DNA from: Phycisphaerae bacterium
GTDB taxonomy: Bacteria > Planctomycetota > Phycisphaerae > UBA1845 > PWPN01
Length of the DNA stretch: 64,000 nt
Direction of reading: 5' to 3'
Assembly (NCBI GenBank): GCA_012719955.1
Contig: JAAXZI010000165.1
Span: 8,611-72,610, forward strand
Shown: positions 3,530 to 62,542 of the stretch, piece by piece
How positions within the stretch are numbered: position 1 is the stretch's first letter
Layout of the letters: each line of letters starts with the position of its first letter
Translations under genes and position numbers: made by a program
The notes under the pieces: generated by a model
Database searches by the model: none
What the model saw: only the letters and a program-made list of their open reading frames with translations
Told to the model about the DNA's origin: nothing

Positions 3530-4573
3530 ATGGACACTGACGGACACAGCAGTATCAGTCGGCGCGAGTTCTGTCGGGTTGCGGTGACGGCCGGGGCCGC
3601 CGCGATGGTTGGGGCTGAAGCTTTCGCTGCGTCGGCGCGGGACGAGACGACGCGGCCAGCCGGACCGCTGGATGCCGGCACGATCCGTGAGCGGATGAAG
3701 GCCGCGGGCGGGCCGCGCGGGTGGCGGACAGCGGTGGGGCGCAACGGTTTTATGTCCTCCGAGCAGGTGCACAAGAAGCGCTATCCCATCTGGGAGGTGC
3801 TCGACTTCTGCCAAACAGAAGGGTTCGAGGGGGTGGAGCTGGTTCAGGGCTGGCCGATGGGCGCGTACCCCCCTGCCGCGGACGCCAGACGCGTGGCCGC
3901 CCTGCGCGGGCTTTACGAGCGATACCAGCTCAAGATCCACACCATCCAGTCGGCGCCGACCGGCCGGCCGTTTGCCGAAGAGGCCGGCGAGCGGGCCGAG
4001 TGGCTGCGCACCTTCCGCGAGCAGGTGAAGCTGGCCAAGGCGTTGGACTGCGATTTTGTGGGCACCTGGCCGGGAGGGGCGCTGGGCAAGCAATCGATTG
4101 ACCAGGCCATTGAACACTGTGCGGCCAGCTACCGGGAAGCGGCGCGGATGTGCGCCGATGAGGGGCTGTGGCTCTCGTTTGAGATCGAGCCGCCGTTTGT
4201 CTTCAACACGTTCGATCATCTCAAGCGGATTCTGGCGGCGGCCGACCATCCCGCGTGCAAGACCAATTACGACCCCAGTCATTTCGACCTCATGTCGGAC
4301 AAGTCCGGCCGGCCGGAGGTCATGCTCAAGGCCCTGGGCGTCGAGCACATCGGGCACGTCCACCTGACCGACACGGACGGCACGCTGTTCGGCGGCACCT
4401 CCCGGCACCTCGCGTGCGGGGAGGGCCACTGCGATATTCAGGCGTCGCTGCGGACCCTGTGGGAAGGCGGCTACCGGGGCTGGATCATGATCGACGCCTG
4501 GATGATCGAGGACGTTTACAATGCCTGCCGGAAGGGCAAGGCGGCGATCGAGCGGACGCTGCGGTCTGTTTGA
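3530..4573 (+). CDS. Tat-exported sugar phosphate isomerase/epimerase (xylose-isomerase-like TIM barrel)
   Basis: Twin-arginine signal SRREFCRVAVTAGAAAMVGAEAFA. GFEGVEL and HIGHVHLTDTDG motifs. I prefer the ATG at 3530 over the GTG at 3485 given in the ORF track. Confidence 0.8.
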   Translation: MDTDGHSSISRREFCRVAVTAGAAAMVGAEAFAASARDETTRPAGPLDAGTIRERMKAAGGPRGWRTAVGRNGFMSSEQVHKKRYPIWEVLDFCQTEGFEGVELVQGWPMGAYPPAADARRVAALRGLYERYQLKIHTIQSAPTGRPFAEEAGERAEWLRTFREQVKLAKALDCDFVGTWPGGALGKQSIDQAIEHCAASYREAARMCADEGLWLSFEIEPPFVFNTFDHLKRILAAADHPACKTNYDPSHFDLMSDKSGRPEVMLKALGVEHIGHVHLTDTDGTLFGGTSRHLACGEGHCDIQASLRTLWEGGYRGWIMIDAWMIEDVYNACRKGKAAIERTLRSV

Positions 4574-4592
4574 ATCACGAAAGCACGAGCTG

Positions 4593-5978
4593 ATGGCAGG
4601 ACGCGTTCTGAAACTGGCACTGGTCGGCGGCGGGATGTTCGGGCGGGACGTGGTGCTGCGCTGCCTGGCCGACGTGCAGCGATGTGGCATTGCCCCTTAC
4701 CTGGGCACGGCCGGTCTCGATCACCACGCCCGCGAGTTGGCCCACGTCGAATATGAGGTGGTGGCCATAGGGACACGGACGGCCCGCACCGCCGAGTCGT
4801 TGTCGGCGGAATATGCTCAGTGGGTGCCCGGCGCCCGGCCGGCGGCGTATTACGGGGAGGAGCCGTGGCTAGGCATACTTGAAGAACAACGGCCGGACGT
4901 GCTCTTTGTGGCCACGCCGGACCATCTGCACACCGCCCCCATCCTGGCGGCCATCGAGCGCGGGGTGCACGTGGTGACCGAGAAGCCGCTGACGCTCCGG
5001 CTGGACGAGGCCCGCACGATTGTCGAGCGGGCCAGGGCGGCGGGGGTAGTCGTGGCCCTGGACATGCACAAACGCTACGACTCTTTTCTGCGCAGCACTT
5101 TTCTGGACATAGTGCCGGAGCTGGGCGAGCTGCTGTATGCCCGGGCCGTGCTGGAGGAGCCGCTGGAGGTATCCACGAAGACATTCAAGTGGGCGGCCCG
5201 GAGCAACCCGTTCAGTTATGTGGGCATCCACTGGACGGACCTGTTTGCCCATTACCTGAAGGTCCGGCCGGTGTCACTGTTTGCGGTCGGGCAGAAGAAG
5301 CTGCTGGCGAACTGGCGCGACGAGGCCCACCCGGACGGGATCGACACGTTTGATGCCATGCAGGTGACCGTGCAGTACGACAACGGGATGAGCGTGCAGT
5401 ACGTGAACGCGTGGATCAACCCGGCGGACTTCGAGGGGCCGGTCAACCAGGAAATGGAGATCGTCGGCACGCGCGGGCGGGTGTTCGTGGACCAGCAGGA
5501 CCGCGGGCTGCGACTGACATTGACCGGGGGCGGGACGCGGACGCGGAATCCGCATTTTCAGGCGGAGGTGCCGCGGGCCGGTGTGGCCCCCACTCCTCGT
5601 GATGCGATACCGGGTCCTGTAAGGATGGCGCCAGATCCTGTAGCGGCCGGGCTCCGTACCGGCCGTTCTCCTCAAGGCTTCCCCACGAGTCCGGGAACAC
5701 CAGTGGCATGCAACAGCGCCTGCATTGGGTACTGCAAGGACTCATTGATAGCAGGCTTGGACGCGGCCTCACGCGTAGCGCTGGGCCTGGGTGATGCGGC
5801 CTCGCTGGCCGGGACGTATCCGGACGCGGCGTCACAGTTGAATTGCATCGCGATTCTGGAGGCGGCGGCACACGTGGCGGGGGCCAATCACGCGAGTTTG
5901 GCAGCCGGGCGGGCCGCAGCAACTGTTGCCTGTTTCACCAGAGCCGGCTTTGAGCTCTCCGGGAATGAACTTGAGTAA
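4593..5978 (+). CDS. Gfo/Idh/MocA-family oxidoreductase with a repeat-derived internal insertion
   Basis: N-terminal Rossmann pattern KLALVGGGMFGRDV, followed by VATPDHLHTAPILAAIERGVHVVTEKPL. The ATG at 4593 fits the family N-terminus. REP-A is translated as PVAAGLRTGRSPQ. Confidence 0.8.
   Translation: MAGRVLKLALVGGGMFGRDVVLRCLADVQRCGIAPYLGTAGLDHHARELAHVEYEVVAIGTRTARTAESLSAEYAQWVPGARPAAYYGEEPWLGILEEQRPDVLFVATPDHLHTAPILAAIERGVHVVTEKPLTLRLDEARTIVERARAAGVVVALDMHKRYDSFLRSTFLDIVPELGELLYARAVLEEPLEVSTKTFKWAARSNPFSYVGIHWTDLFAHYLKVRPVSLFAVGQKKLLANWRDEAHPDGIDTFDAMQVTVQYDNGMSVQYVNAWINPADFEGPVNQEMEIVGTRGRVFVDQQDRGLRLTLTGGGTRTRNPHFQAEVPRAGVAPTPRDAIPGPVRMAPDPVAAGLRTGRSPQGFPTSPGTPVACNSACIGYCKDSLIAGLDAASRVALGLGDAASLAGTYPDAASQLNCIAILEAAAHVAGANHASLAAGRAAATVACFTRAGFELSGNELE
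5637..5672 (+). repeat. REP-A copy 1 (CCTGTAGCGGCCGGGCTCCGTACCGGCCGTTCTCCT), intragenic
   Basis: Hairpin with stem CGGCCGG/CCGGCCG and 8-nt loop GCTCCGTA. Differs by one base from 6021-6056. Confidence 0.9.
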
Positions 5979-5980
5979 TC

Positions 5981-6125
5981 TCTCCCCCACTTCTGAAAAG
6001 GCGGGACACCCGGGTCAAATTCTGTAGCGGCCGGGCTCCGTACCGGCCGTTCTCCTCTGGAGTCTCCCTGCTCCCCATCGTCTACAAAGGGTCCCCCCAT
6101 CTCTGAAGAGGTCGGGCACCCGAGC
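5981..6125 (+). repeat. composite intergenic repeat block: ~35-bp imperfect direct repeats flanking REP-A copy 2 (6021-6056)
   Basis: 5981-6016 (TCTCCCCCACTTCTGAAAAGGCGGGACACCCGGGTC) compares with 6091-6125 (GTCCCCCCATCTCTGAAGAGGTCGGGCACCCGAGC). REP-A lies between them. Confidence 0.7.
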
Positions 6126-6194
6126 TTCTCACTTCTGACGAGCTGAGTACCCGAGGCGCGGGAATGCCCCCCTGCTTGGGTATGAATCACCCCG

Positions 6195-7487
6195 TTACTG
6201 GAAGTAATCCGGATACACCCGCGGGTGCGGCTTGCGGGCCTGGTAGGATTTGGCGAGGTCCAGGAAGATCTCAATGTCACGGTCCACGCTGGCGTTGACG
6301 CCGTCGAAGTAGCAGATGCGGATGGGCATGCCGGCGTGGTCCTCGCTGATGGCCGGGTAGACGGCCTCGGCGATGGTGCCGTTCATGCAGGTGAACGGGC
6401 TGATGTCGATCACGCCGTCGGCGCCGTGCTTCTGCATGAAGATGGACTGGCCGGCGCTGAGCACCATCTCGCCTAAGCACCCCTCCGGCGGCAGGTACGG
6501 CCGGGCGGCCTCCAGGACCTCGGTGATATCGTGGGCCTCCTCATAGCCCTTCAGGTCATTGACCAGCGGCGCGCGCAGACCTTCCGAATAGCGGCGCTGG
6601 AAACCGGCCTTGATCTTGAACAGCAGGTAGGCCAGGCTGAAACGTCCATGATCGTTGATGATCTGTCTGCCCTGGCCCCAGTTGCTGTACCAGACCCATT
6701 CGGAGAACTCCGACATCCAGCACTCGCCGCCCAGCCGCTCGATGGTGTTGAGGGTGTTCTGGTTGGCGAAGTCATTCAGCCGGCAGAAGATCTCCCCGAT
6801 GATGCCGATCAGCGGCCGGCCCTTGACGTAATTGGCGGGGATGGCCCGGAAACGGTCGCGCATCTGCTCGACCAGGCCGATCAACTCACAGAAGCGTTTC
6901 CCGACGCTGATGTCCTGGCGCTCGAGGACGGCCTCGAAGTCGTGCACGCACTGGCGGTAGACGGCCTCGGACTGGCCCGGGTTGATCTCGTAGGGCCGGG
7001 TCTTATAGAGAAACTTGGTGACCAGGTCGCCGCAGGTCACGCCCATCCACATGGTCCGCATCAGTTCCCCGGCGTGCTCGCGGATGCCGTCGTAGGAGTC
7101 GTCGGCGGAGGGCGAGAAGATCATCACGTCGCCGTAGCCGAGCTTCCGCAGCTCTTTCTTGAGATACACCGCGTACTGCCCGAACCGGCAGGGCCCGTTG
7201 GAACTGGCCATGAAGAAGGCGGTCTTGGCGGGATCGAAGTCCGGCTGGCGGCAGACCTTCAGGAAGTCGCCCAGGGTGATCTTGTGCGGCAGGCACTCCT
7301 CGCCGCTGGCGTGAAGCCCGCCCAGGACCAGCGTCTCCGGGTCGGAGTCGGGCGTGATGGTGGCGTCAATGCCGATTGAGCGGAATGCCGCGGCGATCAC
7401 CCGCCCGCCGGCATAGGCCATCTGGGGAATATACAATTTTCGGCCCGCAAGGCTCTGGCCGTTCGATAAAGCCTGGGCTTTCGCCAT
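6195..7487 (-). CDS. acyl-CoA dehydratase activase-related protein (DUF2229-like), stand-alone
   Basis: 430-aa ORF with GC-rich third positions. The blocks GEECLPHKITLGDF and SSNGPCRFGQY resemble the C-terminal module of CoA-enzyme activase proteins. Family assignment is from memory. Confidence 0.55.
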   Translation of the reverse strand: MAKAQALSNGQSLAGRKLYIPQMAYAGGRVIAAAFRSIGIDATITPDSDPETLVLGGLHASGEECLPHKITLGDFLKVCRQPDFDPAKTAFFMASSNGPCRFGQYAVYLKKELRKLGYGDVMIFSPSADDSYDGIREHAGELMRTMWMGVTCGDLVTKFLYKTRPYEINPGQSEAVYRQCVHDFEAVLERQDISVGKRFCELIGLVEQMRDRFRAIPANYVKGRPLIGIIGEIFCRLNDFANQNTLNTIERLGGECWMSEFSEWVWYSNWGQGRQIINDHGRFSLAYLLFKIKAGFQRRYSEGLRAPLVNDLKGYEEAHDITEVLEAARPYLPPEGCLGEMVLSAGQSIFMQKHGADGVIDISPFTCMNGTIAEAVYPAISEDHAGMPIRICYFDGVNASVDRDIEIFLDLAKSYQARKPHPRVYPDYFQ

Positions 7488-9041: not shown

Positions 9042-9131
9042 TGCCGGTTCCGGTCCGGAAGTTTCGTGCTTCGGCTCATGAGGCGGGCAGAATACCCGCT
9101 CCCCCGGCAGCAGCAGGCGGCTGTTCCGGCG

Positions 9132-9150
9132 GGCGGGCGTCCTGCCCGCC
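9132..9150. repeat. REP-C copy (GGCGGGCGTCCTGCCCGCC); a degenerate copy lies at 9082-9101
   Basis: Palindrome GGCGGGC/GCCCGCC. The same core occurs at 39671-39689 and 55144-55162. Confidence 0.75.
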
Positions 9151-9275
9151 TGATTCGGCGCGAAACGGGTGGACTGGAAACGGCGTCAGCGGATGCCCGA
9201 TAGAGAATCAAGAGAAGTACCCGGGATGAAAAGCGCGTCGAGCGGCGCAGGCGTCACCGGGGACTGTTTTTTCCC

Positions 9276-18530: not shown

Positions 18531-18590
18531 GCATCCGCCCTGCCTAAGCGTCCGCCTCATGAGCCGGCAACGAATCGCCCTCAAACCCTC

Positions 18591-18650
18591 TGTGTGCCAC
18601 GGCTCTTGAGCCGTGCAGGACGACCATCGGTGTGCCACGGCTTTGCGGGC
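18591..18650. repeat. REP-B copies 1 and 2 (TGTGCCACGGCTCTTGAGCCGTG; TGTGCCACGGCTTTGCGGGC)
   Basis: Hairpin CACGGCTC-TTGA-GCCGTG. The same motif occurs at 25901-25976. Confidence 0.75.
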
Positions 18651-25900: not shown

Positions 25901-25976
25901 TGTGCGCCACGGCTAACGGCCGTGCCCAATGTTGGCGCCATCGCGACACGACTGTGTGCCACGGCTCTTGAGCCGT
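25901..25976. repeat. REP-B copies 3 and 4 (TGTGCGCCACGGCTAACGGCCGTGCC; TGTGTGCCACGGCTCTTGAGCCGT)
   Basis: 25953-25976 is identical to 18591-18614 (copy 1). Confidence 0.75.
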
Positions 25977-39644: not shown

Positions 39645-39670
39645 TGGAGGTAATGGCGGCGGTTCCGGAG

Positions 39671-39689
39671 GGCGGGCATCCTGCCCGCC
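39671..39689. repeat. REP-C copy (GGCGGGCATCCTGCCCGCC)
   Basis: Palindrome located 27 nt after the glycosidase stop. The extended match TCCGG.GGGCGGGC.TCCTGCCCGCCTGA is shared with 9125-9153. Confidence 0.75.
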
Positions 39690-39882
39690 TGACCCGCCGA
39701 GAAGCTCGGTGTACTTGTGACGGCACCAGCGACGGGAGGTCAGGAACCAAGGGCAGGAAAGAGGGGATAGCAGTTGGAGAAAGAGGAGGAATCTGTCAGA
39801 TTCAGTCGTGAGTTCAGCACCACGAGGCGATTCCGGTTTTTGACAACGAATTCCGGCAGGTGCAGCAGCGGGGTTTGACAGG

Positions 39883-49192: not shown

Positions 49193-52134
49193 TCCATCAA
49201 TGGCTCCGCGCCTGCATCGAACTGCCCCCCGCCTGCGAACTCCTGTTCAAGATCACCATCCTGTTGACCATGGCATGGGCGCTGCATCTGGTCCTGCGGC
49301 GCGGCAACCCTTATTGGCGCGTGCTGCTCTGGCGCGGATTCGGCACGGCCATCCTCGCCACCCCCCTGCTGATCCTGGTGACACCGGAGATTCCGGTTGC
49401 CGTCCCGGCGGCGTCGCCCATGGCCGCGGGCCCGGCGATGGAGCAGGACTGGCCGCTCCTCTCCTATCAACCAGAACCGCTCACGGTAGCGGCACCCCAG
49501 GACACAGCGGCAGGAATCCCCGCGGCACCCATCGCCGCGCAACCGCCGTGGACCACGCGGGCCGCCAGGTGGATCACCGGCCACGGGCCTGCGCTGCTGG
49601 CAGCACTCTGGGCCACGGGCAGCGCGTTGCTCCTTGGGCAATGGATCCTTGCGTGGCTGCGGCTGCGGCGGATCATTGCGCTCTCGACCGCGGCGGGCGA
49701 GCACTACTGGGAACCGCTGCGCCGTGCCCAAACGGCGGTCGGATGCCATGCGAGGGTGCGGTTGCGTTTGGCCCGCGGATTGTCCAGCCCCCTGCTGGCC
49801 AGCGTTCGCACGCCGACCATTCTGATCCCCGAACATCTGGCCACCCGCACCAGCCCGGCGGAACTGCAGGCCATCCTGGCCCACGAGCTGTGCCATTTGA
49901 ACAACCGCGACTTGCTGTGGATGGCGATACTGCGCGGCCTGACCATTCTGCTCTGGTGGCACCCTCTCGCCTGGCGGCTGTGCCAGGCTCATGGCGAGGC
50001 ATGTGAAGAAGCATGTGACGCCGCCGCGGCCACCATTGTGGGCGATCCGGCCGCCTATTCCCGCACCCTGGCCCGCCTGGCGCTCGCCGCGTTGGCCCCG
50101 GCGCCCGCGCTGGCCGGCATTCCCATGGCCCGGCCCGCGCAGATAGTACGGCGCCTGTCGCGCCTGGCCATGCGCATGAATGCGTCACGGCCCGGACTGC
50201 GCCACGTGCTTCCGGCGGGTCTTCTGGCCGCCGCCGTCAGCCTGGGGCTGAGCGGCCTGCAACTGGTCGGCACGACGATGGCCGCACCGGAGACCCGGCC
50301 GGCAGACGCCGCCGCACGGGTGCTGCATTTCCCAACGGACCGGTCGCTGGGCACGCTCTTCGTCCAGGACGCCCATTCTCGGGGGGAGACAACCACCTCT
50401 TACCACTGGATGGAAGACGAGACCAGCAACCAGTGGGACGAACTCGGCCCTGCCCGCGGAGATGTGACCATCCCGGCCGGCAAGCGCGTACACCTGAGGG
50501 TCGAACGGGAAGGCTGGAAAGACCTCTCCCCGCTGGCCAGCCTCGCGCCTGACGATCTCGAGGCCTTATCCTTCAGTGGCTCAGGCCTGACCGCGGAGGA
50601 AAGCGAGGACTGGGGCATCCTGCGCGCCGAAAGCGCCGACGATGCCGTGATGCCGCACGTGGCCCGGCTCACCGGTTTGAAGAGCCTGCACCTCAATCTC
50701 ACCTGCGTGACCGGCAAGGCGCTTCGACATCTTGAAGGGTTCCAATCCCTGGAATCCCTCTCACTGCCCTGCCGGATGGATGACGAGGGCATGCCCTACG
50801 TGGCCAGACTCACCGGCCTCAAGCGGTTGTATTTCACCCGGAACACCGTCACCAATCGAGGTCTGGCCGCGCTGAAAAGCCTCCGCAACCTGGAGGAGTT
50901 GGAACTCGGCGGCAAGGCCATGAGCGACGGGGGCCTTGTGCATCTCAAATCGCTTCCTCGACTGAATCACCTGACGCTCTGGGGGACGACTTTCACGGAT
51001 GCGGGCATGGCCCACGTGGCTCAGGTTTCTTCGCTCAAGATCTTCCATCCTTTCCGCATGAACACGATTGGAGACCAGGGGCTCGCCCACCTGGCCAAGC
51101 TGCCGAACCTGCAACGGCTTGCCTTGCACTACAACGAGAAAATCACCGACGCCGGCATGGCCCACGTGGCCCGTATGCGGGCGTTGCGACAGCTCAACCT
51201 CAGTCACACGAAGATCGGCGACGCCGGCGCCAAACATCTCCAGAAGCTTCCCCACCTGGAATTGCTGAACCTGCCCAGCGGCCTCAGTTCGGACGCCCTG
51301 GTCGCCCTGCTGGCCAACCAGCCCCGGCTGCGCAGCCTGGAGTGCGGCACCACCTCCAACAGTCCATACGGGAACGAGTTGTGCGAGCAGATTGGCAAAA
51401 TGGCTGACTTGGAGGAAGTGACCATCACCGGAAGGCGGATCACCGATGCCGGGATGACTCACCTGACCAACTGCCGCAAACTCAGAAAGCTCATGCTGTT
51501 CTACTGTCCCATCACCAACAAAGGCCTTGCCGAGCTTGGCCGGATCAAATCGCTCACGAACCTGGACATCACCGGCGCAAGATTGACGACTTCCGGCCTC
51601 AAGCAGCTCAATGGCCTCACCCATCTCACTTATCTCAGACTCTCACAGGTCGAGCCCGACGAGGAATACGCGGATCTCTCCGGCCTCACCAACCTGCGGA
51701 AATTCACCTGGGGCGACAGCTCCAACGGCGAACCCTTGCGCGACGCCGACCTGGCCTCGCTGGCCAAACTGAAGAACCTCGAATGGTTTCAGATGTCCTT
51801 TGGCCGGGGAATCACCGACGCCGGCCTGGCCCACCTGGCCGGCCTGACGCAAATGAAACGGCTGTCGATTGGAGACGAACTGACCGATGCGGGATTGGCC
51901 CACCTGGCAAACATGAAGCAGCTCAATTCCCTGACCATCGCCGGCAATTTCACCGAGAAGGGCCTGCTGACGCTCGGACGCCATTCATCGCTGGCCTACC
52001 TGTGGGTGGCTACGCCCAGGCGGCTCAGCAACGACATCGCCGACCAGATGGCCGCCCGGCTGCCCAACCTGTCCTTGTTCCACTACGGCCCGGACTCTCA
52101 ACACATGCGACCACTCCAACTGAGCCGCCCCTGA
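49189..52134 (+). CDS. BlaR1-like M56 membrane metalloprotease fused to a ~600-aa leucine-rich-repeat domain
   Basis: Transmembrane N-terminus with HELCHLNNRD (HExxH) of M56. The C-terminus holds more than 15 repeats of ~24-25 aa of the type L..L.L....ITDAGLAHLA.L..L. Confidence 0.85.
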   Translation: MIHQWLRACIELPPACELLFKITILLTMAWALHLVLRRGNPYWRVLLWRGFGTAILATPLLILVTPEIPVAVPAASPMAAGPAMEQDWPLLSYQPEPLTVAAPQDTAAGIPAAPIAAQPPWTTRAARWITGHGPALLAALWATGSALLLGQWILAWLRLRRIIALSTAAGEHYWEPLRRAQTAVGCHARVRLRLARGLSSPLLASVRTPTILIPEHLATRTSPAELQAILAHELCHLNNRDLLWMAILRGLTILLWWHPLAWRLCQAHGEACEEACDAAAATIVGDPAAYSRTLARLALAALAPAPALAGIPMARPAQIVRRLSRLAMRMNASRPGLRHVLPAGLLAAAVSLGLSGLQLVGTTMAAPETRPADAAARVLHFPTDRSLGTLFVQDAHSRGETTTSYHWMEDETSNQWDELGPARGDVTIPAGKRVHLRVEREGWKDLSPLASLAPDDLEALSFSGSGLTAEESEDWGILRAESADDAVMPHVARLTGLKSLHLNLTCVTGKALRHLEGFQSLESLSLPCRMDDEGMPYVARLTGLKRLYFTRNTVTNRGLAALKSLRNLEELELGGKAMSDGGLVHLKSLPRLNHLTLWGTTFTDAGMAHVAQVSSLKIFHPFRMNTIGDQGLAHLAKLPNLQRLALHYNEKITDAGMAHVARMRALRQLNLSHTKIGDAGAKHLQKLPHLELLNLPSGLSSDALVALLANQPRLRSLECGTTSNSPYGNELCEQIGKMADLEEVTITGRRITDAGMTHLTNCRKLRKLMLFYCPITNKGLAELGRIKSLTNLDITGARLTTSGLKQLNGLTHLTYLRLSQVEPDEEYADLSGLTNLRKFTWGDSSNGEPLRDADLASLAKLKNLEWFQMSFGRGITDAGLAHLAGLTQMKRLSIGDELTDAGLAHLANMKQLNSLTIAGNFTEKGLLTLGRHSSLAYLWVATPRRLSNDIADQMAARLPNLSLFHYGPDSQHMRPLQLSRP

Positions 52135-55062: not shown

Positions 55063-55094
55063 TGTAGCGGCCGGGCTCCGTACCGGCCGCTACA
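55063..55094. repeat. REP-A copy 3, full palindrome TGTAGCGGCCGG-GCTCCGTA-CCGGCCGCTACA
   Basis: 12-bp perfect stem between convergent genes (stops at 55031 and 55209). It could act as a bidirectional terminator or RNA stabiliser. Confidence 0.85.
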
Positions 55095-55208: not shown

Positions 55209-56468
55209 TCAGGCAAGCCGCCGACGGCCGCCCGGACCGGTGCCGATGGTCCGGCCAAGTGATCGGATACGGCTCTTGAGGCAGCCGCGACAGTGCTGGG
55301 CCGTCTCCGTGATGCACGCTTTCGCCGGGTAGATCTCGTACATGGCCCGGTACTGAACGGGGGTGAGGTTGGGCATCACCACGTTGGCCCCCCGGCACAG
55401 GGCCAGCTCGCGTCCGCTCTCCTGGTTGAGGGTGGCGATGGCGGTCGTGCCGGGAATGTTGGCCTGGGGGCACATCAGTCGGGTCAGGGCCACCATTTTG
55501 TACGCCATCTTCTCCGTATTGGGCACCTGGTCCGCCGAGGGGTGAGGCTCCGGCCGGGTTGCCAAGCGCTCCCCCAGCGGCGTGTCCGGATGCGGGATGT
55601 ACGGCCCCACGCCGATCATGTCGAGGTCCAACTCGCGGAACAACAGCAGATCGCGCGCGAGCGTCTCGTAGGTCTGCCCGGGAATGCCCACCATCACACC
55701 GCTGCCAATCTCATAGCCCAACCCGCGGAGCGTCCTCAGCAGTTCCACGCGGTCGGAAGGGCGCGAACCCAACGGCGGATGAATGCGGGCGTAGAGCTCA
55801 CGGTCGGACGTCTCGAAGCGAAGCAGGTAGCGGTCCGCCCCCGCTTCGCGCCAGGCGGCAAGGTCCTCGACCGGCCGTTCGCCCAGGCTCAGCGTGACCG
55901 CGAGGGGCGTCTCGGCCTTGATCTGGCGGATCAGCCGGGCGAGCCAGCTCCGGCCGATGCCGTAGTCCTCGCCGGCCTGCATGACCACCGTGCCGTAACC
56001 GAACTCGACCGCCTGGCGGGCACAGGCGAGGACCTCGTCGGCCGACAGACGATAGCGCACCAGCTTGGTGTGCCCGGCGCGCAGGCCGCAGTAGGCGCAC
56101 TGCCGCACGCAGTGGTTGGAGATCTCGACCAGCCCGCGCAGATGCACGGCATCGCCCACCATTTCATGCCGCACACGGTCCGCGGCTGCGTACAGCGTTT
56201 CCAGCCGGGAGTCGTCCTCTTCGCGCAGCCAGTGGAGAAGGTCGGTTTCGGTCAGTGGGCTTTCCAGGTGCGATGCGCCGTCAGCAGCGGACGCGGAACG
56301 GCCGGTACGGAGCCCGGCCGCTACAGAGTTGGCATGGAGGCCGGGCGGTACGGGGTTGGTACGAGGCCCGGGCGCGACAGAGCCGGCGGAAACATGGGCC
56401 GGCCCTGCCGGTGTTGCGCCTTCCGGCGAGCTAGAACAGTGGTTCAGAATGGGTAAAGAGCTCAGCAC
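55209..56468 (-). CDS. hydE: [FeFe]-hydrogenase maturase HydE (radical SAM) with a repeat-derived N-terminal extension
   Basis: EISNHCVRQCAYCG radical-SAM motif. HydE-like blocks VMQAGED and LRFETSD. GTG start overlaps the hydF stop by 7 nt. Confidence 0.9.
   Translation of the reverse strand: MLSSLPILNHCSSSPEGATPAGPAHVSAGSVAPGPRTNPVPPGLHANSVAAGLRTGRSASAADGASHLESPLTETDLLHWLREEDDSRLETLYAAADRVRHEMVGDAVHLRGLVEISNHCVRQCAYCGLRAGHTKLVRYRLSADEVLACARQAVEFGYGTVVMQAGEDYGIGRSWLARLIRQIKAETPLAVTLSLGERPVEDLAAWREAGADRYLLRFETSDRELYARIHPPLGSRPSDRVELLRTLRGLGYEIGSGVMVGIPGQTYETLARDLLLFRELDLDMIGVGPYIPHPDTPLGERLATRPEPHPSADQVPNTEKMAYKMVALTRLMCPQANIPGTTAIATLNQESGRELALCRGANVVMPNLTPVQYRAMYEIYPAKACITETAQHCRGCLKSRIRSLGRTIGTGPGGRRRLA
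56299..56327 (-). repeat. REP-A copy 4, inside the hydE 5' coding region (translated SVAAGLRTGRS); degenerate copies up to ~56390
   Basis: The plus strand reads CGGCCGGTACGGAGCCCGGCCGCTACAGA. The adjacent 56331-56390 is a decayed tandem copy. Confidence 0.85.
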
Positions 56469-57739
56469 GCCATCTTCTCCTGTTCGAAACCCCTGCCTGC
56501 CCGTCTGGCAGTCCAGGCCCGCTGATAGACTTCCATGGCCGCGGGGAACGGTTGTAGGGCCCGTTCAAACAAGCCCAGACTGTAGGAGATCACCAGCCCG
56601 TAATTCGTGATGGGCACGCCCGCCTGCCGGCAGCGCAGGATGCGCGTGAGCACTTCGCGTCGGTTGGTCATACACGCTCCGCAATGGATGACCAGCTTGT
56701 AGGGGGACAGGTCCTCCGGAAAATCGTGGCCCTGCACGTGCTCGAATTTCAGCTCGCCGCCCACGTACTGCGTGAGCCAGCGTGGGATCTTGACCCGGCC
56801 GATGTCCTCGGCAATGGGATGATGGGAGCAGGCCTCGGCCACCAGAACGCGGTCGCCGGCCCGCAGCACATCCACCGCCAGCGTGCCCTCCACCTGCGCG
56901 GCCAAGTCGCCTTTGAAGCGGGCAAAGAGAATGGAGAAGCTGGTCATGGGGATTTCCGGCGGCGTGTCGGCAGCCACCTTGAGGAAGGCTTGAGAGTCAG
57001 TTACCACCAGGGCGGGCGGCTCGGAGAGCATCTCCAGCGCCCGGGGCAGTTCGCGCTCCTTGACCACCATGCAGAACGCGTCGTGATCGAGCAGATCGCG
57101 GATGGTCTGAACCTGAGGCAAAATCAGCCGGCCCCGCGGGGCCTCCTTGTCGATGGGCACGACCAGGACAGCCGCCCGGCCCGGCGGTACCAGGTCGGCC
57201 AGAATGGTCGGGTTGTTCACGAAATCGGCCGGGGCCACATCCAGCAGGGCCTGGCGGAAATCAAGCATGCCCTCGCCCCGGCTGGCCGCGGTCCGCACCA
57301 GCCTCACGTTCAGCCCGGTCAGCTTTTGCACCAGCTCCGGGTCGGGCGCCGCCAAGTCGATCTTGTTGAACACGACCACCACCGGCACGTTCCGCTTGCG
57401 CAGCTCCGCGAGCACCTGATCCTCAAATGCCCCCCACGCGCCGGCTTCGGCCACGATGACCCCCAGATCGGTACGATCCAGCACCTGGCAGGTCTTACGC
57501 ACGCGCAAAGCGCCAAGCGCGCCCTCATCGTCCACGCCGGCGGTATCGATGAAGAGCACCGGCCCCAGCGGCAGCAGCTCCATGGGCTTCTCAACGGGGT
57601 CGGTCGTGGTGCCCGCGAACTCGGACACGATCGACACCTGCTGGCGCGTGACGGCGTTGAGCAGGCTCGACTTGCCGACGTTGCGACGGCCAAAGAGGCC
57701 GATGTGCAAACGCAGGCTCCGGGGAGTTGAGCGATTCAT
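56462..57739 (-). CDS. hydF: [FeFe]-hydrogenase maturation GTPase HydF
   Basis: GRRNVGKSSLLNA P-loop, DTAG, NKID. C-terminal EACSHH...HCGACM cluster-binding motifs. AAGGAGA RBS. Confidence 0.92.
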   Translation of the reverse strand: MNRSTPRSLRLHIGLFGRRNVGKSSLLNAVTRQQVSIVSEFAGTTTDPVEKPMELLPLGPVLFIDTAGVDDEGALGALRVRKTCQVLDRTDLGVIVAEAGAWGAFEDQVLAELRKRNVPVVVVFNKIDLAAPDPELVQKLTGLNVRLVRTAASRGEGMLDFRQALLDVAPADFVNNPTILADLVPPGRAAVLVVPIDKEAPRGRLILPQVQTIRDLLDHDAFCMVVKERELPRALEMLSEPPALVVTDSQAFLKVAADTPPEIPMTSFSILFARFKGDLAAQVEGTLAVDVLRAGDRVLVAEACSHHPIAEDIGRVKIPRWLTQYVGGELKFEHVQGHDFPEDLSPYKLVIHCGACMTNRREVLTRILRCRQAGVPITNYGLVISYSLGLFERALQPFPAAMEVYQRAWTARRAGRGFEQEKMAC

Positions 57740-57818
57740 CGCGTCTCCTTCTCGATGGGAAACAGGCGCTGATGGAACACAGTCAACCTCATGACAACAC
57801 GCCTTCGGTCACCTGCTT

Positions 57819-59231
57819 TCACACGAACACGTCCCGGCCGCCGATCCTCACCTTCGTTACCAGCTTCTCGGCGATTTGCCGGCCGCGGGGGTCCATCTCC
57901 CCCATCGCGGCCTGGATGCGCGCCTCGCCGGCCTGGCGCGTGGGCCCGGAGGCGTAGTCGCACAGGTATTCCTGGAACGTGGAGAGAGCGTTGGGATCGC
58001 AGTGATGTTTGATCTCCCCCGGCTTGGCCAGATCCATGAAGTCCTGACCGGTCCGGCCCAGGCGATAGCACGCGGTGCAGAAGGAGGGAATGTAGCCCAG
58101 TTCCGCGACATCGCGCACGACCTCGTCCAGCGGACGGTGATCGCCCAGGGCGAATTGCTCGGTGGCCTCGCCTTCACCTTCCTCATAACCGCCGGGGTTG
58201 GTCCGGCTGCCGGCGGAGATCTGAGAGACGCCCAGGGCGAAGGTCTCCCGGCGAATGGCGGGCGACTCGCGCGTGGACATGATGATGCCGGTGTACGGAA
58301 CGGAGATCCGCAGAATAGCGACGATCTTGAGAAAGTCGATATCGCTGACCGACTGCGGCGGGCGCCCGGCCAGTGGCGCGCCCAGGGCCGGCTCGATCCG
58401 CGGGACGCTGATGGTATGCGGGCCGACGCCGAACTTCTCTTCCAGGTGGCGGATATGCTGCATCAGGGCCAGGATCTCGAAGCGCCAGTCGGCCAGTCCG
58501 AACAGCACGCCCATGCCCACGTCATCGATGCCCGCTTCCATGGCCCGGTCGAAGGCCGAGATCCGCCAATCGTAATCGCGCTTCCTGCCGGCCACGTGCA
58601 CCCGTGAATACACCTCCCGGTGGTAGGTCTCCTGGAAGAGCTGATAGGTGCCGATGCCGGCGGCTTTGAGTTGCCTGAACTGATCCAGGGTCAGCGGGGC
58701 GACGTTGGCGTTCACGCGGCGGACCTCGCCGGGACCGACTTTGGTGTCATAAATGGTCGCGATGGCCTTGAGTATGTAATCGAAGCCTTCCTCCGCGGGG
58801 TAAGCTTCGCCGGCCACCAGCAGGATGCGCTTGTGGCCCTGGCGGATGATGAGCTCGGTTTCGCGGGCGATCTCGGCCTGGGTGAGAGCCCGCCGTCGAA
58901 GGGCCTTGTTCCCGGCCCGGAAGGCGCAATACAGGCACTCGTTGCCGCACAGGTTGGAGATGTAGAGCGGGGCAAACAGCACCAGCCGCTTGCCGTAGAT
59001 TTCCTCCTTGACCCGCCGGGCGGTGGCGAACAGCTCATTCAACAGGCCCGGGTCGCTGAGGTTCATCAATACGGCCATCTCTTCAGGTTCGAGCCCCTTG
59101 AGGGCCAGGGCCTTGGTCAATATCTCGCGCACCTGCGACGCGTCACACCGGCGGCTTTGCGCCAGCGTGTGCTCGATCTTCTCGTAATTGATCGGTACTG
59201 TCTCGACGTTGCGCGTTACCACTGCGTTCAT
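57819..59231 (-). CDS. hydG: [FeFe]-hydrogenase maturase HydG (radical SAM tyrosine lyase)
   Basis: NLCGNECLYCAF radical-SAM motif and the C-terminal CTACYR...HHCDPN auxiliary cluster motif. Confidence 0.92.
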   Translation of the reverse strand: MNAVVTRNVETVPINYEKIEHTLAQSRRCDASQVREILTKALALKGLEPEEMAVLMNLSDPGLLNELFATARRVKEEIYGKRLVLFAPLYISNLCGNECLYCAFRAGNKALRRRALTQAEIARETELIIRQGHKRILLVAGEAYPAEEGFDYILKAIATIYDTKVGPGEVRRVNANVAPLTLDQFRQLKAAGIGTYQLFQETYHREVYSRVHVAGRKRDYDWRISAFDRAMEAGIDDVGMGVLFGLADWRFEILALMQHIRHLEEKFGVGPHTISVPRIEPALGAPLAGRPPQSVSDIDFLKIVAILRISVPYTGIIMSTRESPAIRRETFALGVSQISAGSRTNPGGYEEGEGEATEQFALGDHRPLDEVVRDVAELGYIPSFCTACYRLGRTGQDFMDLAKPGEIKHHCDPNALSTFQEYLCDYASGPTRQAGEARIQAAMGEMDPRGRQIAEKLVTKVRIGGRDVFV

Positions 59232-59337
59232 CTTTGAAATCCTTCCTGTCTATTCGCGGGAAAAGATTCCCGCTTCATGCGGGGTGCGAAAAACAACTCT
59301 CGCAACCACCGCCTGGGAGTCTCGCATCAGCCCGGAG

Positions 59338-59479
59338 CCTTCTCCTTGCCCCTCGTCCTCTTGTCTCCTTGTCCCCTTGTCGGCGTATCGCCTGAACGGC
59401 CGGTACGGAGCCCGGCCGCTACAGGGGTGGGACGGAGCCCGGCTGCTACCTCTTACAAGTAGCTGCTACCACCTACAGG
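59338..59479. repeat. composite repeat block: pyrimidine-rich copy of the zwf repeat (59338-59381), REP-A copy 5 (59397-59425), and two degenerate REP-A units (59426-59479)
   Basis: Exact 22-mer shared with 1621-1642 (reverse complement). CGGCCGGTACGGAGCCCGGCCGCTACAGG. The following GGTGGGACGGAGCCCGGCTGCTACC and CTACAGG units decay progressively. Confidence 0.8.
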
Positions 59480-60636
59480 TACTCAACGGTCACCAGCTTT
59501 CCGGCACGGCGCAGCTTCTCCGCCAGCAGGGGCACGATGTTTTCACGGTGCAGGATGCCCCGCTGTCGGAAGGCAATGTTGTCGTGATCGGCGTTCCGCT
59601 TTCTGCCGACGAGGAACAGCACGCGATCGGCCTCCCGGAGCAGCTCGCACAAGCGGCTCACGCCGGTGGCCTTCTCGTACTTGCCGGGATCTTCGTCGAT
59701 GATGTTGTACGCCTGGTTGAGCGTCACCGCTCCTTCAGTGGCCAGGTCCACGTCCTTGAGCACGTAATCGGGCGGAGCAATCAGGCTGCTGGCCTCCTGG
59801 CGCACGGCCACACTGGTGTGCGTGTGGCGGGCAACGATTTTGGCGGTCGTGCCCCCGCATACCACCTTCCGCCCTTCCAGACTCATGAACCGCCGCACCA
59901 CCGCACCGTCGTCCTCCTCGTCGGCGGGCGGGCCGGTCAATACGTTGACGATGCGGCCCTGGCGGCAGCGAGCCAGCAGCACCGTACAGTCGTCTCCCTG
60001 GGCCAGCCGTCCGGGTTCTTCCGAAAGGTTCTGGGCCTGGAAATGCACCGAGGCGGACAGCTTATCCAGGGGCAGGCCGGTGCTGAGTTTCCCATTGATG
60101 TAACGGCATGCGCCCTCGATGCCCCAGCCCTCCGCATAACCGGCGCCCAGCCCCGCCTGGGTGACGCCGTCGCTGACCAGCATCAGGGCCTCACCAGGCT
60201 CGACGTAACAGTCGGACTCATGCACCAGCGCATTGTCCAGCAGCAGCGTCCGGTGCGGCAGGACGGTGGCGAACTTCTTGGCGCTGATCACGATGGCCGG
60301 CGGCATCTCGTACGAGAGCACCGTGGTCTCACCGTCGTTGGCGATCCGGGCGATGGTAAAGCAGGCGTAGGGCAGGTCGCTGCCCCGGATCCCGGCCATG
60401 GTGCCGGCCACGCCGGCCATGGCTTCGCGCAGCGAGTAGTCGCGGCGCAGCAGCTCGTGAAGCCGCGAGACGGTCATGGTCGCCGCCACGTTGGCCCTGA
60501 TGCCGGAGCCGATCCCGTCACAGCAGATGATGGTTGTGCCGCGAACCGTGCGTTCCCAGGACACCACGTCGCCGCACAAGCCACCAACCCGCCGGGGGCT
60601 CTGGCATGCGTCTATTTCGACGTGTACATATCCCAT
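59473..60636 (-). CDS. SpoIIE/PP2C-like serine phosphatase with an uncharacterised C-terminal domain (HfsC-like)
   Basis: GDVV...CCDGIGSG...CFTIARI...GEALMLVSDGV follows the SpoIIE/PPM pattern. Overlaps the hydS end by 25 nt. Confidence 0.75.
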   Translation of the reverse strand: MGYVHVEIDACQSPRRVGGLCGDVVSWERTVRGTTIICCDGIGSGIRANVAATMTVSRLHELLRRDYSLREAMAGVAGTMAGIRGSDLPYACFTIARIANDGETTVLSYEMPPAIVISAKKFATVLPHRTLLLDNALVHESDCYVEPGEALMLVSDGVTQAGLGAGYAEGWGIEGACRYINGKLSTGLPLDKLSASVHFQAQNLSEEPGRLAQGDDCTVLLARCRQGRIVNVLTGPPADEEDDGAVVRRFMSLEGRKVVCGGTTAKIVARHTHTSVAVRQEASSLIAPPDYVLKDVDLATEGAVTLNQAYNIIDEDPGKYEKATGVSRLCELLREADRVLFLVGRKRNADHDNIAFRQRGILHRENIVPLLAEKLRRAGKLVTVEYL

Positions 60637-62372
60637 ATCATGGGCCTTCCCTGAGGGGTCCGCGGATCGTTGGCATACTGGAGCAGGTTGCGGACCAGTT
60701 CCTCGCCGCGGGCCGTGCTCTCGCCGAGCAGCTTGGCGATCTGCTGGGCCATGGTGATCTGGTGCTCGAGCAGCTCGCGCGCCTGCCGGGCGGTCTGCGA
60801 TTGAAGCTGTTGCAGTTTCTCTTCGTTGGCCTGGCTGTGGGTGACGTTCACGAAGATACCGACGTACTGGCCTTCAGCCTCCAGCCGGTAGAGGATCTGG
60901 TGGCACAGCAGCTTGTACTTCTGATGGTGGACCGTGATGGAGACCGGCTCATGGCCATTTACGGCGAGCTGTTCAAAGGGCTCAGGGTCCATCAGGTACG
61001 AGATCTTTCGCCCGCACACCGCGTCTGAGCAGCAGAACATCTTCCGGAACGCCGCGTTCATGTGAATGATCTCGAACCGGTCGTTGAGAATCACGATGCC
61101 GTTGGGGCTGGTGTCGATGATGCGGTCGGTGCGCTGCTCGGCCAGCAGCCGCATGCGCGGAATGCACATCTCCGGCTCGGCCAGGCCGCGCAGGACGGCG
61201 ATGGCTTTCTCCCGGCAGCTCGAATAGCCGCAGGACCCGCAATTAAGCTGGTCCTCCACGCGGGCCTTGCCGGTCTTTTCGAGCACGGCCCGAATCTGTT
61301 CCTCGGTGAACTCCTCGCCGCCGGCGGTCGCGTCGGGAGCGAAGTTCTGGTTCAGCTCGACGCCCTCGACGAGCGACTCGGAACGGGCCGTCGGGGTGGA
61401 CTGGGCATAATCCAGCACGGCAGCGCGTTTGCCATAGAGATTGCCCCCGGCCGGCATGCCGGGCCCGTTCACACAGCCCTGGGCGCAGAACAGCGGTTCG
61501 ATCATCCGCGGGAAAGCGTCGTGACGAATGCCGTCCAGGGCCTCGGACACCTCTTCGAAGCCGCTGGGAGCGATGCACTCTTCGGCGAGCAGGTCGGTGT
61601 GCAGGGCGGCAGTTTTAGCCAGCCCGCCGGGCAGAGGGAAGAAGCGGGCGTGCCCGGCGGGGCTGGCGTCAAACCGACTCTCCTCGAGTTCCGCGAGCAC
61701 GATGTCTTCGCGCTCGAACCATTCCATCAATTCCTTGAAGGTCAGCACGCAGTGGACCAGCCGGCTGTGGCCGGGCCACTGGGCTTCCGCCTTCTTGGCT
61801 ACGCACGGGCCGATGAACACCACTTTGGTCCGCGGCCCCAGCGCGGCGCGGATCAGGCGGGCATGGGCAATCATGGGCGAGACCACCGGCACCAGGGCGT
61901 CAATCAGCTCCGGCCGGTACTTCTCCACGTAGCTCACCACCGCGGGGCAGGCGGTGCACACGTGCGGGCGCTCGGGTTCGGCGGCCACCACGCGGGCGGT
62001 CTGGGCGGCCACGTGAAACGCGCCCCTGGCGGTTTCGGCCACGTAGGAAAAACCCAGCTTCCGCAACGCGGAGGGCAATCGTTTCCACTCCCATTCGCTC
62101 CACAGGGCGGCAAAGGAGGGAGCCACACTGGCCGCCACCGGATCGCCCCCGGCCAGCAACCGCGCCGCCCGTTCGAGGTCGTTGCGGTAGGCCTTGGCCC
62201 CCTGCGGGCACTGGCGAATGCAGGTCCCGCAGGCGATGCACCGGCCCTCGTCAACGAACGCCTGTCCGTCGCGCACCCCGATGGCCTTCACCGGGCAGGC
62301 CCGCACGCACCGGTAGCAGTCCCGGCAGCGGGCCTTGTCCGTGAAGACGATCTGGGTGGTAGTGGGTTGCAT
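60612..62372 (-). CDS. hydS: sensory [FeFe]-hydrogenase-like protein (HydS/HfsB type): 2x[4Fe-4S] ferredoxin, H-cluster-like domain, Cys motif and PAS
   Basis: CRDCYRCVRACP and CIACGTCIRQCP. H-domain variants VCTACPAVV, GPCVAKKAEA, FCAQGCVNGPG. CGSCGYSSC. The C-terminal PAS region includes SPNGIVILNDRFEIIHMNAAFRKMF. I prefer the ATG at 62372 over the TTG at 62387. Confidence 0.85.
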   Translation of the reverse strand: MQPTTTQIVFTDKARCRDCYRCVRACPVKAIGVRDGQAFVDEGRCIACGTCIRQCPQGAKAYRNDLERAARLLAGGDPVAASVAPSFAALWSEWEWKRLPSALRKLGFSYVAETARGAFHVAAQTARVVAAEPERPHVCTACPAVVSYVEKYRPELIDALVPVVSPMIAHARLIRAALGPRTKVVFIGPCVAKKAEAQWPGHSRLVHCVLTFKELMEWFEREDIVLAELEESRFDASPAGHARFFPLPGGLAKTAALHTDLLAEECIAPSGFEEVSEALDGIRHDAFPRMIEPLFCAQGCVNGPGMPAGGNLYGKRAAVLDYAQSTPTARSESLVEGVELNQNFAPDATAGGEEFTEEQIRAVLEKTGKARVEDQLNCGSCGYSSCREKAIAVLRGLAEPEMCIPRMRLLAEQRTDRIIDTSPNGIVILNDRFEIIHMNAAFRKMFCCSDAVCGRKISYLMDPEPFEQLAVNGHEPVSITVHHQKYKLLCHQILYRLEAEGQYVGIFVNVTHSQANEEKLQQLQSQTARQARELLEHQITMAQQIAKLLGESTARGEELVRNLLQYANDPRTPQGRPMIWDMYTSK

Positions 62373-62378
62373 GGTAGA

Positions 62379-62526
62379 TTTCAGCAATCAGCTTTCAGCG
62401 ATCAGCGATCAGCTTTCAGCTTTGTAGCGGCCGGGCTCTGTACCGGCCGTTGTTCTGTAGCGGCCGGGCTCCGTACCGGCCGTTGTGTTCACGATGCCCA
62501 TGGCCGGTACGGAGTCCGGCCGTTAC
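62379..62526. repeat. intercistronic repeat cluster: simple TTTCAGC/RATCAGC tandem (62379-62422) followed by REP-A copies 6, 7 (direct) and 8 (inverted)
   Basis: 62423-62450 and 62456-62484 are tandem copies. 62502-62526 is the reverse complement, so copies 7 and 8 can pair over ~21 bp. Confidence 0.85.
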
Positions 62527-62542
62527 GTGTCGGCGACGACAC

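Follow-up and report, generated by a model that had tools for sequence, protein, structure and literature searches.

In a 64,000-nucleotide stretch of DNA from a Phycisphaerae bacterium (contig JAAXZI010000165.1, positions 8,611 to 72,610; hereafter the window, with positions counted from its first letter), an open reading frame (ORF) for a Gfo/Idh/MocA-family oxidoreductase carries, read in frame, one unit of a repetitive extragenic palindrome (REP) family that we call REP-A. In the reading that we favor and hold to be probable, a GTAG-headed REP has become coding sequence within a frame-preserving 120-nt expansion of a loop of this oxidoreductase, where it would be a neutral passenger with a history in two steps. 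An earlier note, made from the letters alone, had pointed to an exact REP-A unit inside this ORF, and this was borne out: a 35-mer (CTGTAGCGGCCGGGCTCCGTACCGGCCGTTCTCCT) is present exactly at 5638-5672, within the gene, and again at 6022-6056, with two further copies at 3 mismatches, and none of 100 dinucleotide-preserving shuffles matched it (0/100).

The host gene (4593-5978, plus strand) is an intact ORF of 461 aa, as judged from the ORF list, Pfam, orthologues, and an AlphaFold2 model. Two Pfam domains scored above their curated cutoffs (GFO_IDH_MocA, PF01408, residues 38-156, 61.3 bits; GFO_IDH_MocA_C3, PF22725, residues 176-297, 39.6 bits); both features of the class, an N-terminal Rossmann NAD(P)-binding domain and a C-terminal alpha/beta domain, are present, and many solved Gfo/Idh/MocA enzymes match the protein by sequence. 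The AlphaFold2 model, built on an alignment of 118 sequences, had a mean predicted local distance difference test score (pLDDT) of 87.9 and a predicted template modeling score (pTM) of 0.87, and Foldseek matched it to structures of 1,5-anhydro-D-fructose reductase and scyllo-inositol dehydrogenase at E ~1e-22. Orthologues in a large protein collection measure 415-430 aa, share up to 91% identity with the window protein, and come mostly from Phycisphaerae and Planctomycetota metagenome-assembled genomes (MAGs). The protein had been described as longer than expected for its family; the length of 461 aa stands, but members of the orthologue family, at ~420 aa, already exceed the usual Gfo/Idh/MocA length, and the true excess is 40 aa (120 nt). 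A promoter and terminator scan of 5400-6300 gave no match, nor did any Rfam family match the whole window at gathering thresholds.

Aligning the protein with its orthologues, as had been proposed, delimited an insertion of 120 nt that preserves the frame and has the REP at its center. In alignments of 22 and 118 sequences, the extra residues of the window protein are confined to the interval between ...NPHFQAEVPRAG (…AEVPRAG) and ACIGYCKDS, and in the DNA alignment the window has 135 nt (5583-5717, plus strand) where the orthologue in L003, one of the related loci (L numbers), has 15 nt, for a net increase of 40 codons (120 nt). This expanded loop segment of 45 codons, compared to ~5 in most orthologues, encodes VAPTPRDAIPGPVRMAPDPVAAGLRTGRSPQGFPTSPGTPVACNS, and its extra 40 residues are rich in Pro, Gly, and Ala. 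The claim that the frame is kept and family-like sequence resumes also held: the REP-bearing ORF is open, its frame continues through the repeat as ...VAAGLRTGR..., and all invariant columns 3' of the insert in the orthologue alignments are retained (G379, Y380, D383, Y409, A425, and N432). The gene may yield a full-length, active protein, in which trypsin would cleave inside VAAGLRTGR, giving peptides that include MAPDPVAAGLR and SPQGFPTSPGTPVACNSACIGYCK. In the AlphaFold2 model, residues 340-371 have pLDDT < 50 and no secondary structure, and lie between strands 324-327 and 375-378. The insert is predicted from this model to be a disordered surface loop joining two β-strands of the C-terminal domain, which answers the structural check that had been suggested. 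No equivalent segment was found in the orthologues, although the loop does vary: the distance from PHF to GYxKDS is 24-26 aa in 87 of 118 sequences, 27-44 aa in 30 others, and 65 aa in the window, and the same loop is Pro/Gly/Ala-rich in several orthologues. This oxidoreductase loop is a length hot-spot among orthologues.

Which part of the insert is repeat? The Pro/Gly/Ala-rich segment had been described as centered on REP-A, and it is; the repeat family, however, accounts for only 28 nt (42 nt when extended), about a third of the segment. The REP-A core unit (TGTAGCGGCCGGGCTCCGTACCGGCCGT; 5639-5666, plus strand), read in frame as VAAGLRTGR, is the sole part of the insert matched by ~190 other copies, and blast coverage along the insert falls from ~190 copies to 0 within a few bases on either side of it. 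In a position-weight matrix built from ~195 REP-A copies, this core scores 48.1 bits, as do the best intergenic copies, and it is identical to the family consensus. The repeat is predicted to fold as RNA into a hairpin (5642-5667, plus strand) with a 9-bp stem (5642-5650 with 5659-5667, including one G-U pair) and an 8-nt loop, GCUCCGUA (-18.2 kcal/mol; z = -2.7), whereas the fold of the whole insert is not unusual (z = +0.42), the unusual stability being limited to the REP hairpin. Around the core, a 42-nt (14-codon) stretch (5632-5673, plus strand), delimited by repeat search and local alignment, is identical at 40/42 positions to 6016-6057 and is a candidate for the most recently copied unit. 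The latter copy (plus strand; repeat and motif search) lies in the 3' flank of the host gene, 38 nt after its stop codon and 384 nt downstream of the in-ORF copy. Because the shared 42 nt include a tail, TTCTCCTC, found in none of the ~190 other copies, we take the in-ORF and 6016-6057 copies to be sisters.

Two further observations concern the surroundings of these sister copies. At the left junction of the insert, the native codons CCGCGGGCCGG (5574-5591), which encode PRAG and are conserved in orthologues, resemble the REP stem GCGGCCGGG / CCGGCCG, and there is weak internal complementarity (75%) between 5576-5591 and 5649-5664 in the REP; this likeness may stem from microhomology where the insertion took place, or from chance in DNA so rich in GC. 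In the 3' flank, two imperfect direct copies (5984-6016 and 6093-6125; 79% over 29 nt; CCCCCAyyTCTGAArAGGnCGGGmCACCCG) bracket the REP copy, and these units have no other copies in the loci save one weak hairpin-like match in L049.

According to the reading that we favor, REP copies would occasionally land in genes and survive there only if the frame is preserved and the site is a loop or linker; the present insertion would be tolerated and essentially neutral. An older, lineage-specific loop expansion of ~78-93 nt would have come first, and the 42-nt (14-codon) REP-bearing unit would have been added later, this unit and the 6016-6057 copy having arisen from one another. The route may have been single-strand transposition of the kind attributed to REP-associated tyrosine transposases (RAYTs), or local template switching or recombination between hairpins.

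Several results weigh against this reading. The remaining ~92 nt of the insert showed no repeat relation in the window or in ~0.6 Mb of related loci (blastn-short), and since these ~92 nt match nothing, the two-step history is one that we infer. Searches of JGI metagenome contigs with one exact 23-nt probe for each of the left and right flanks of the insert gave no match, and comparison of the insert flanks with those of the 3' copy revealed no convincing relation (left, P = 0.03; right, P = 0.40). Nor were the insert flanks significantly similar to the L001 insert or to the REP-C consensus (P = 0.06 to 0.99), and the idea of a shared ancestral insert, suspected by eye, was dropped. No RAYT bracketed on both sides by REP-A was found among the window and related loci, and the window contains no RAYT. 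Across the insert, GC content at third codon positions (GC3) falls from 0.73-0.97 before to 0.47-0.77 after, and identity to L001 drops exactly at the insert, from 92.2% (3686-5578) to 81.9% (5710-5917). The GC3 and identity changes could stem from recombination or relaxed constraint, and the loop may be a recombination breakpoint. On the side of the reading, the ratio of nonsynonymous to synonymous divergence (dN/dS) between the window and L001 was 0.057 upstream of the insert (dS 0.23) and 0.145 downstream of it (dS 0.95), and that between the window and L003 was 0.159 upstream (dS 0.73) and 0.121 downstream (dS 1.50), but these ratios cover the whole divergence and not the period since insertion, and the sole sequence that shares the insert is nearly identical to the window.

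The same figures bear on whether the gene is a young pseudogene, its enzyme knocked out by the REP-bearing insertion and its frame open only for lack of time. The dN/dS ratios span more than the period since the insertion, the part of the gene downstream of the insert has a reduced GC3 and a greater divergence from L001, and the L001 orthologue is itself truncated at its C-terminus beside an IS3-family transposase gene. Against decay, dN/dS is 0.12-0.15 downstream and therefore indicates purifying selection on the C-terminal part, the 87 codons past the insert are open with all invariant residues kept, and the insert falls in a length-variable loop that is modeled as disordered while the remaining model is confident. 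REP-A is moreover read in frame in the valyl-tRNA synthetase (ValRS) and AceE genes of related MAGs; ValRS and AceE are essential in most bacteria. We therefore regard a pseudogene as unlikely.

A second assembly speaks to the integrity of the sequence itself. Contig L002 (ENA ERZ2931792; coverage 2.3x) aligns to the window over 3428 nt at 99.59% identity, without gaps and with 14 mismatches; the 135-nt segment is there too, between the same junctions and with a single mismatch. This counts against an assembly artefact, in which a repeat-induced mis-join would have put a REP copy or a foreign segment into the gene. Such an error has to be considered given that the source is probably a MAG, that an identical REP copy lies 384 nt away, and that REPs are classic sites of mis-assembly. 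L002, however, differs at 14/3428 positions and so derives from different reads, yet it has the same segment and junctions; both flanks of the insert continue one orthologous gene in register, with a length that is an exact multiple of 3; and a mis-join or collapse between copies would remove or double the intervening 384 nt rather than supply 92 unique nt. An artefact is thus highly improbable. Inside the host gene, L002 and the window differ at six positions, all of them non-synonymous transversions; an interpretation of these as gene decay was rejected, and we read them as sequencing errors of the 2.3x contig.

We also considered whether the whole 120 nt might be one composite mobile element, a MITE (a miniature transposable element with inverted repeats) or a mosaic like the bacterial interspersed mosaic elements (BIMEs), which carries the REP and has its other copies outside the DNA searched. 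REP-A in related MAGs often alternates with other hairpin families in modules of a fixed 57-60 nt, and the intragenic REP inserts described by Di Nocera, De Gregorio & Rocco (2013, BMC Genomics 14:522; PMC3733652) are often dimers or clusters encoding 20-82 aa. On the other side, a second copy of the left or right flank turned up neither in the 64-kb window nor in the 0.6 Mb of related loci nor, with exact 23-mers, in the JGI metagenomes. Neither of the two marks of a MITE, a target-site duplication and terminal inverted repeats, was found at the insert ends (5583 and 5717), and a position-weight scan of the insert flanks detected no degenerate REP-A above 0 bits besides the one core. Taking the whole 120-nt insert as a repeated unit was rejected, as only the 28-nt core recurs in the window and the ~0.6 Mb. 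A composite element is accordingly improbable, and we retain the neutral passenger with an expansion older than the REP as the more plausible history.

Next to the window in relatedness, the oxidoreductase loop has a different occupant. In the nearest relative without the window insert (L001, protein P0002; 91% aa identity), a different 51-nt excess occupies the same place (66 nt compared to 15 nt), and it matches a third hairpin family, GCACTGCTCACAGAGCAGTGGCACAC, with 15-17 nt exact and a score attained by 0/3000 shuffles; in related loci this third family reads CACTGCTCA(C/A)AGAGCAGTGGCACAC. Two REP families have thus come to occupy one oxidoreductase loop in sister lineages. The loop inserts of P0011, P0012, P0013, and P0032 showed no match to the repeat families, only the L001 insert doing so. 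The P0012 orthologue (L082, 3952-4005), from a MAG that bears REP-A, has an 11-aa loop insert with a perfect 8-bp palindrome, CGCGGTTTTTCAAACCGCG, that is single-copy in the DNA examined. In L001 (2302-3597), the C-terminus of the orthologue loses similarity and ends beside an IS3-family transposase pair (HTH_Tnp_1 and rve); this orthologue has probably been truncated by the insertion sequence.

The oxidoreductase is not the only host. REP-A copies were sought in related DNA within ORFs having coding-type GC3 on both sides, and these ORFs were then checked against Pfam; REP-A was found in frame within at least 11 Pfam-verified genes of related MAGs, with domains that flank or span the repeat. 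The repeat lies between the two domains of DprA (L012) and of OpcA (L051/L082), between FGGY_N and FGGY_C of an FGGY kinase (L025), between the middle and C-terminal domains of AceE (L062), and between TPR hits of a TPR protein (L063). A REP cluster separates the catalytic and anticodon-binding domains of ValRS (L022, 1-3498, minus strand), and three 60-nt modules, each of REP-A and a second hairpin, stand in frame between UbiD_N and the Rift domain of UbiD (L014, 4139-5818, minus strand). In a CCA/polyA polymerase (L016), the REP follows the RNA-binding domain and the ORF runs ~190 aa further; a DnaE2-like polymerase (L023) has REPs at two sites, one inside HHH_6; a Ser/Thr kinase (L032) has one inside the kinase domain; and an Eco57I/MmeI-type (type-IIG-like) methylase (L059, 1000-4446, plus strand) contains three tandem 33-nt units in frame, VAAGLRTGRQD x3. 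The L022 ValRS also has several separate low-complexity inserts besides its REP cluster. By our tally, ~19 of 177 copies lie inside Pfam-verified genes, or ~1/10 of the sample. On these sequences, the window case appears to be one instance of a clade-wide habit.

Among 15 independent in-frame events, 13 use one codon phase, read as VAAGLRTGR, or as TAGTEPGRY on the other strand (binomial P = 2.8e-4, assuming equal use of the five open frames). We entertain, tentatively and with more doubt than belief, the broader idea that one REP family is a systematic source of loops and linkers in a Phycisphaerae clade, with a 26-nt core that at least eight species-level MAGs share without change, ~10% of copies translated, almost always one phase, and recurrent hot-spots. 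If true, this would imply that integration is targeted (GGCCGG-like sites, among them the native CCGCGGGCCGG, being one example) or that selection acts on the peptide or the mRNA hairpin, and the copies would be more than a random series of tolerated accidents.

The phase bias also enters into a further alternative, exaptation, in which the mRNA hairpin regulates the gene (through pausing, an RNase barrier, or differential 5' stability) or the loop has gained a function. The hairpin is stable (-18.2 kcal/mol), the in-ORF REP core is identical to the family consensus, and the use of one phase in 13/15 events (P = 2.8e-4) suggests some filter on what is encoded. That bias, however, is equally explained if purifying selection removes peptides that do harm or codons that are rare, and the consensus identity may just reflect a young copy; the host genes and positions are unrelated, and the loop is predicted to be disordered. 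Under the favored reading, too, the mRNA would carry a hairpin of -18 kcal/mol in its coding region, which may slow ribosomes or affect mRNA decay, any use of this being speculative. We judge exaptation distinctly unlikely, slightly more so than a pseudogene or a composite element, and keep to the neutral passenger as our preferred account.

By form and context, REP-A is a GTAG-type REP, with the palindromic hairpin, the GTAG head, the many and mostly intergenic copies, and the inverted dimers and clusters of such repeats. G, T, A, and G occupy the first four positions in 99-100% of 137 aligned copies; after this GTAG head comes a stem, CGGCCGG/CCGGCCG, with the loop GCTCCGTA, and no conservation extends more than 1 base outside the core. 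REP-A hairpins have stems of 9-13 bp, loops of 8 nt, and folding energies of -18.2 to -26.9 kcal/mol (z = -2.7 to -5.8). In the window, the 26-nt core (GTAGCGGCCGGGCTCCGTACCGGCCG) is present eight times with 3 or fewer mismatches, and the matrix adds a ninth, degenerate copy; the position-weight scan of the window returned these nine REP-A copies, eight of them intergenic, and nothing else above 8 bits. Beyond the window, the exact 26-mer is present in at least 74 stretches in a scan of one genome per species, with ~8 Phycisphaerae/Planctomycetota MAG species among the matches listed, and 177 REP-A copies at 4 or fewer mismatches were counted in the ~0.6 Mb of related DNA. They are arranged as singles, as tandem arrays with a 30-33-nt period (L009, L059), as inverted doublets (e.g., L024, L036, L046, L071, L075), and interleaved with a second hairpin family, CACCGGCTGGAAGCCGGTGCCACAC, in 57-60-nt modules (L017, L033). 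Exact REP-A cores were also seen in L035 and L073 (CAXXSG010000002.1, 755 kb), which are labeled Desulfuromonadales, the other hits all being Planctomycetota; mislabeling, mis-binning, or horizontal transfer could account for these.

Transposase genes of the expected kind coexist with the repeats. Four ORFs with HUH and Y motifs in related loci are RAYT candidates. With NCBIfam NF047646 (RAYT; cutoff 80), those in L049, L070, and L074 scored 101-140 bits, and the fourth, in L077, scored 75.5 bits, below the cutoff. Inverted pairs of a closely related GTAG REP, GTAGCGCCGGACCTCCGAGTCCGGCG, stand on either side of the RAYT-like gene of L077 (75.5 bits). For the RAYT gene of L074, a REP-A copy lies 136 nt from the 3' end, but the hairpin that brackets the gene is another one.

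The intergenic REP-A copies of the window include one with the full 13-bp stem (55063-55090, plus strand; motif and matrix; -26.9 kcal/mol), one between hydE and hydF with two degenerate 27-nt units after it (56298-56378, minus strand; repeat and motif search), one with a single degenerate unit (59396-59450, minus strand; repeat search and matrix), and a cluster of three units, two direct and one inverted (62423-62527; repeat search, motif, and matrix). REP-A units occupy four intergenic gaps of a hydrogenase/hydE-hydF-hydG cluster. This cluster (55209-63880, minus strand) comprises a HydE-like radical-SAM protein, HydF, HydG (radical SAM and BATS), and a SpoIIE-type phosphatase, together with a sensory-type [FeFe]-hydrogenase homologue with a PAS domain and an [FeFe]-hydrogenase. 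A heptamer-like run, CAGCTTT / CAGCGAT / CAGCAAT, at 62380-62423 directly precedes the REP-A cluster at 62423-62527.

The window holds other repeats as well. An exact 25-nt repeat (CTGTGTGCCACGGCTCTTGAGCCGT) is present at 18590-18614 and 25952-25976, both apparently intergenic; it is a hairpin whose tail, ...GTGGCACAC in reverse complement, is of the type that characterizes the second and third REP families of related MAGs. A 49-nt repeat, 86% identical between 9116-9164 and 39655-39703, contains the hairpin GGCGGGC(G/A)TCCTGCCCGCC and represents another palindromic family, with a similar motif at ~55150. Six 31-nt copies and a related 41-nt unit, spaced by multiples of ~75 nt, are found in coding sequence at 50775-51909 and look like leucine-rich-repeat periodicity.

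How does this case compare to known systems? GTAG- and CGTC-tagged REP superfamilies were defined by Di Nocera and colleagues (PMC3733652), who report GTAG REPs from the Planctomycetes-Verrucomicrobia-Chlamydiae (PVC) superphylum, including the planctomycete R. baltica, note that REP ends often provide the TAG stop codon for the adjacent gene, and describe intragenic in-frame REPs in several species and phyla, above all in Opitutus terrae. Their intragenic hosts include DnaE2 and tRNA synthetase genes, and linkers or loops are proposed there as the places that tolerate such inserts. Like the GTAG REPs described there, REP-A is a stem-loop with an unpaired 5' GTAG, mostly intergenic, present as singles, dimers, or clusters, found alongside RAYT genes, and located in ORFs as a minority, and DnaE2 and tRNA-synthetase hosts recur in the related MAGs. 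In contrast, the REP-A sequence, the Phycisphaerae MAG lineage, and the host gene are absent from the main text of that paper, and REP-A here is embedded in ~92 nt of extra unique sequence, unlike the intragenic GTAG REPs it describes. No literature linking REPs to Phycisphaerae was found in the searchable library.

The likeness to Rickettsia palindromic elements (RPEs) raised by the earlier note holds as an analogy, in that the repeat is in frame and the ORF open, and not as membership. As in the RPEs (Ogata et al. 2000, as cited in PMC3733652), a palindrome sits in frame in apparently functional genes at fold-compatible sites. The same source presents the short intragenic RPE-4 and RPE-6 of R. 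conorii as CGTC-tagged and without a dedicated transposase, and RPE-1 as a longer palindromic element. REP-A differs from the RPEs in being GTAG-tagged and 28 nt long, in free-living high-GC Planctomycetota where RAYT genes coexist, and there is no sequence relationship between the two. With the REPIN/RAYT system of Pseudomonas and Enterobacteria (Bertels & Rainey 2011, PMC3116915), REP-A shares the GTAG head, the imperfect palindrome, and inverted doublets, and the flanking of a RAYT by inverted REPs is seen for the related REP around the RAYT-like gene of L077. Unlike those families, which are described as extragenic, REP-A has ~1/10 of its copies in coding sequence in our sample.

The event is of a known kind; what is new is its lineage, REP family, and host gene. 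Taken alone, the case adds a Phycisphaerae lineage and a host gene to a phenomenon cataloged for GTAG and CGTC REPs. It is a well-delimited instance of an "extragenic" repeat turned into protein, backed by comparison with an empty site, by a second assembly, and by a structural model in which the insert falls in a tolerant loop. For annotation, odd low-complexity Pro/Gly/Ala segments are to be expected in many proteins of these MAGs, and it would be wrong to read them as frameshifts, chimeras, or novel domains. Should complete genomes bear out the clade-wide pattern, with ~10% of copies coding, a strong phase bias, and repeated hits in one loop, these organisms would be a good system in which to study REP/RAYT target choice and selection on coding insertions.

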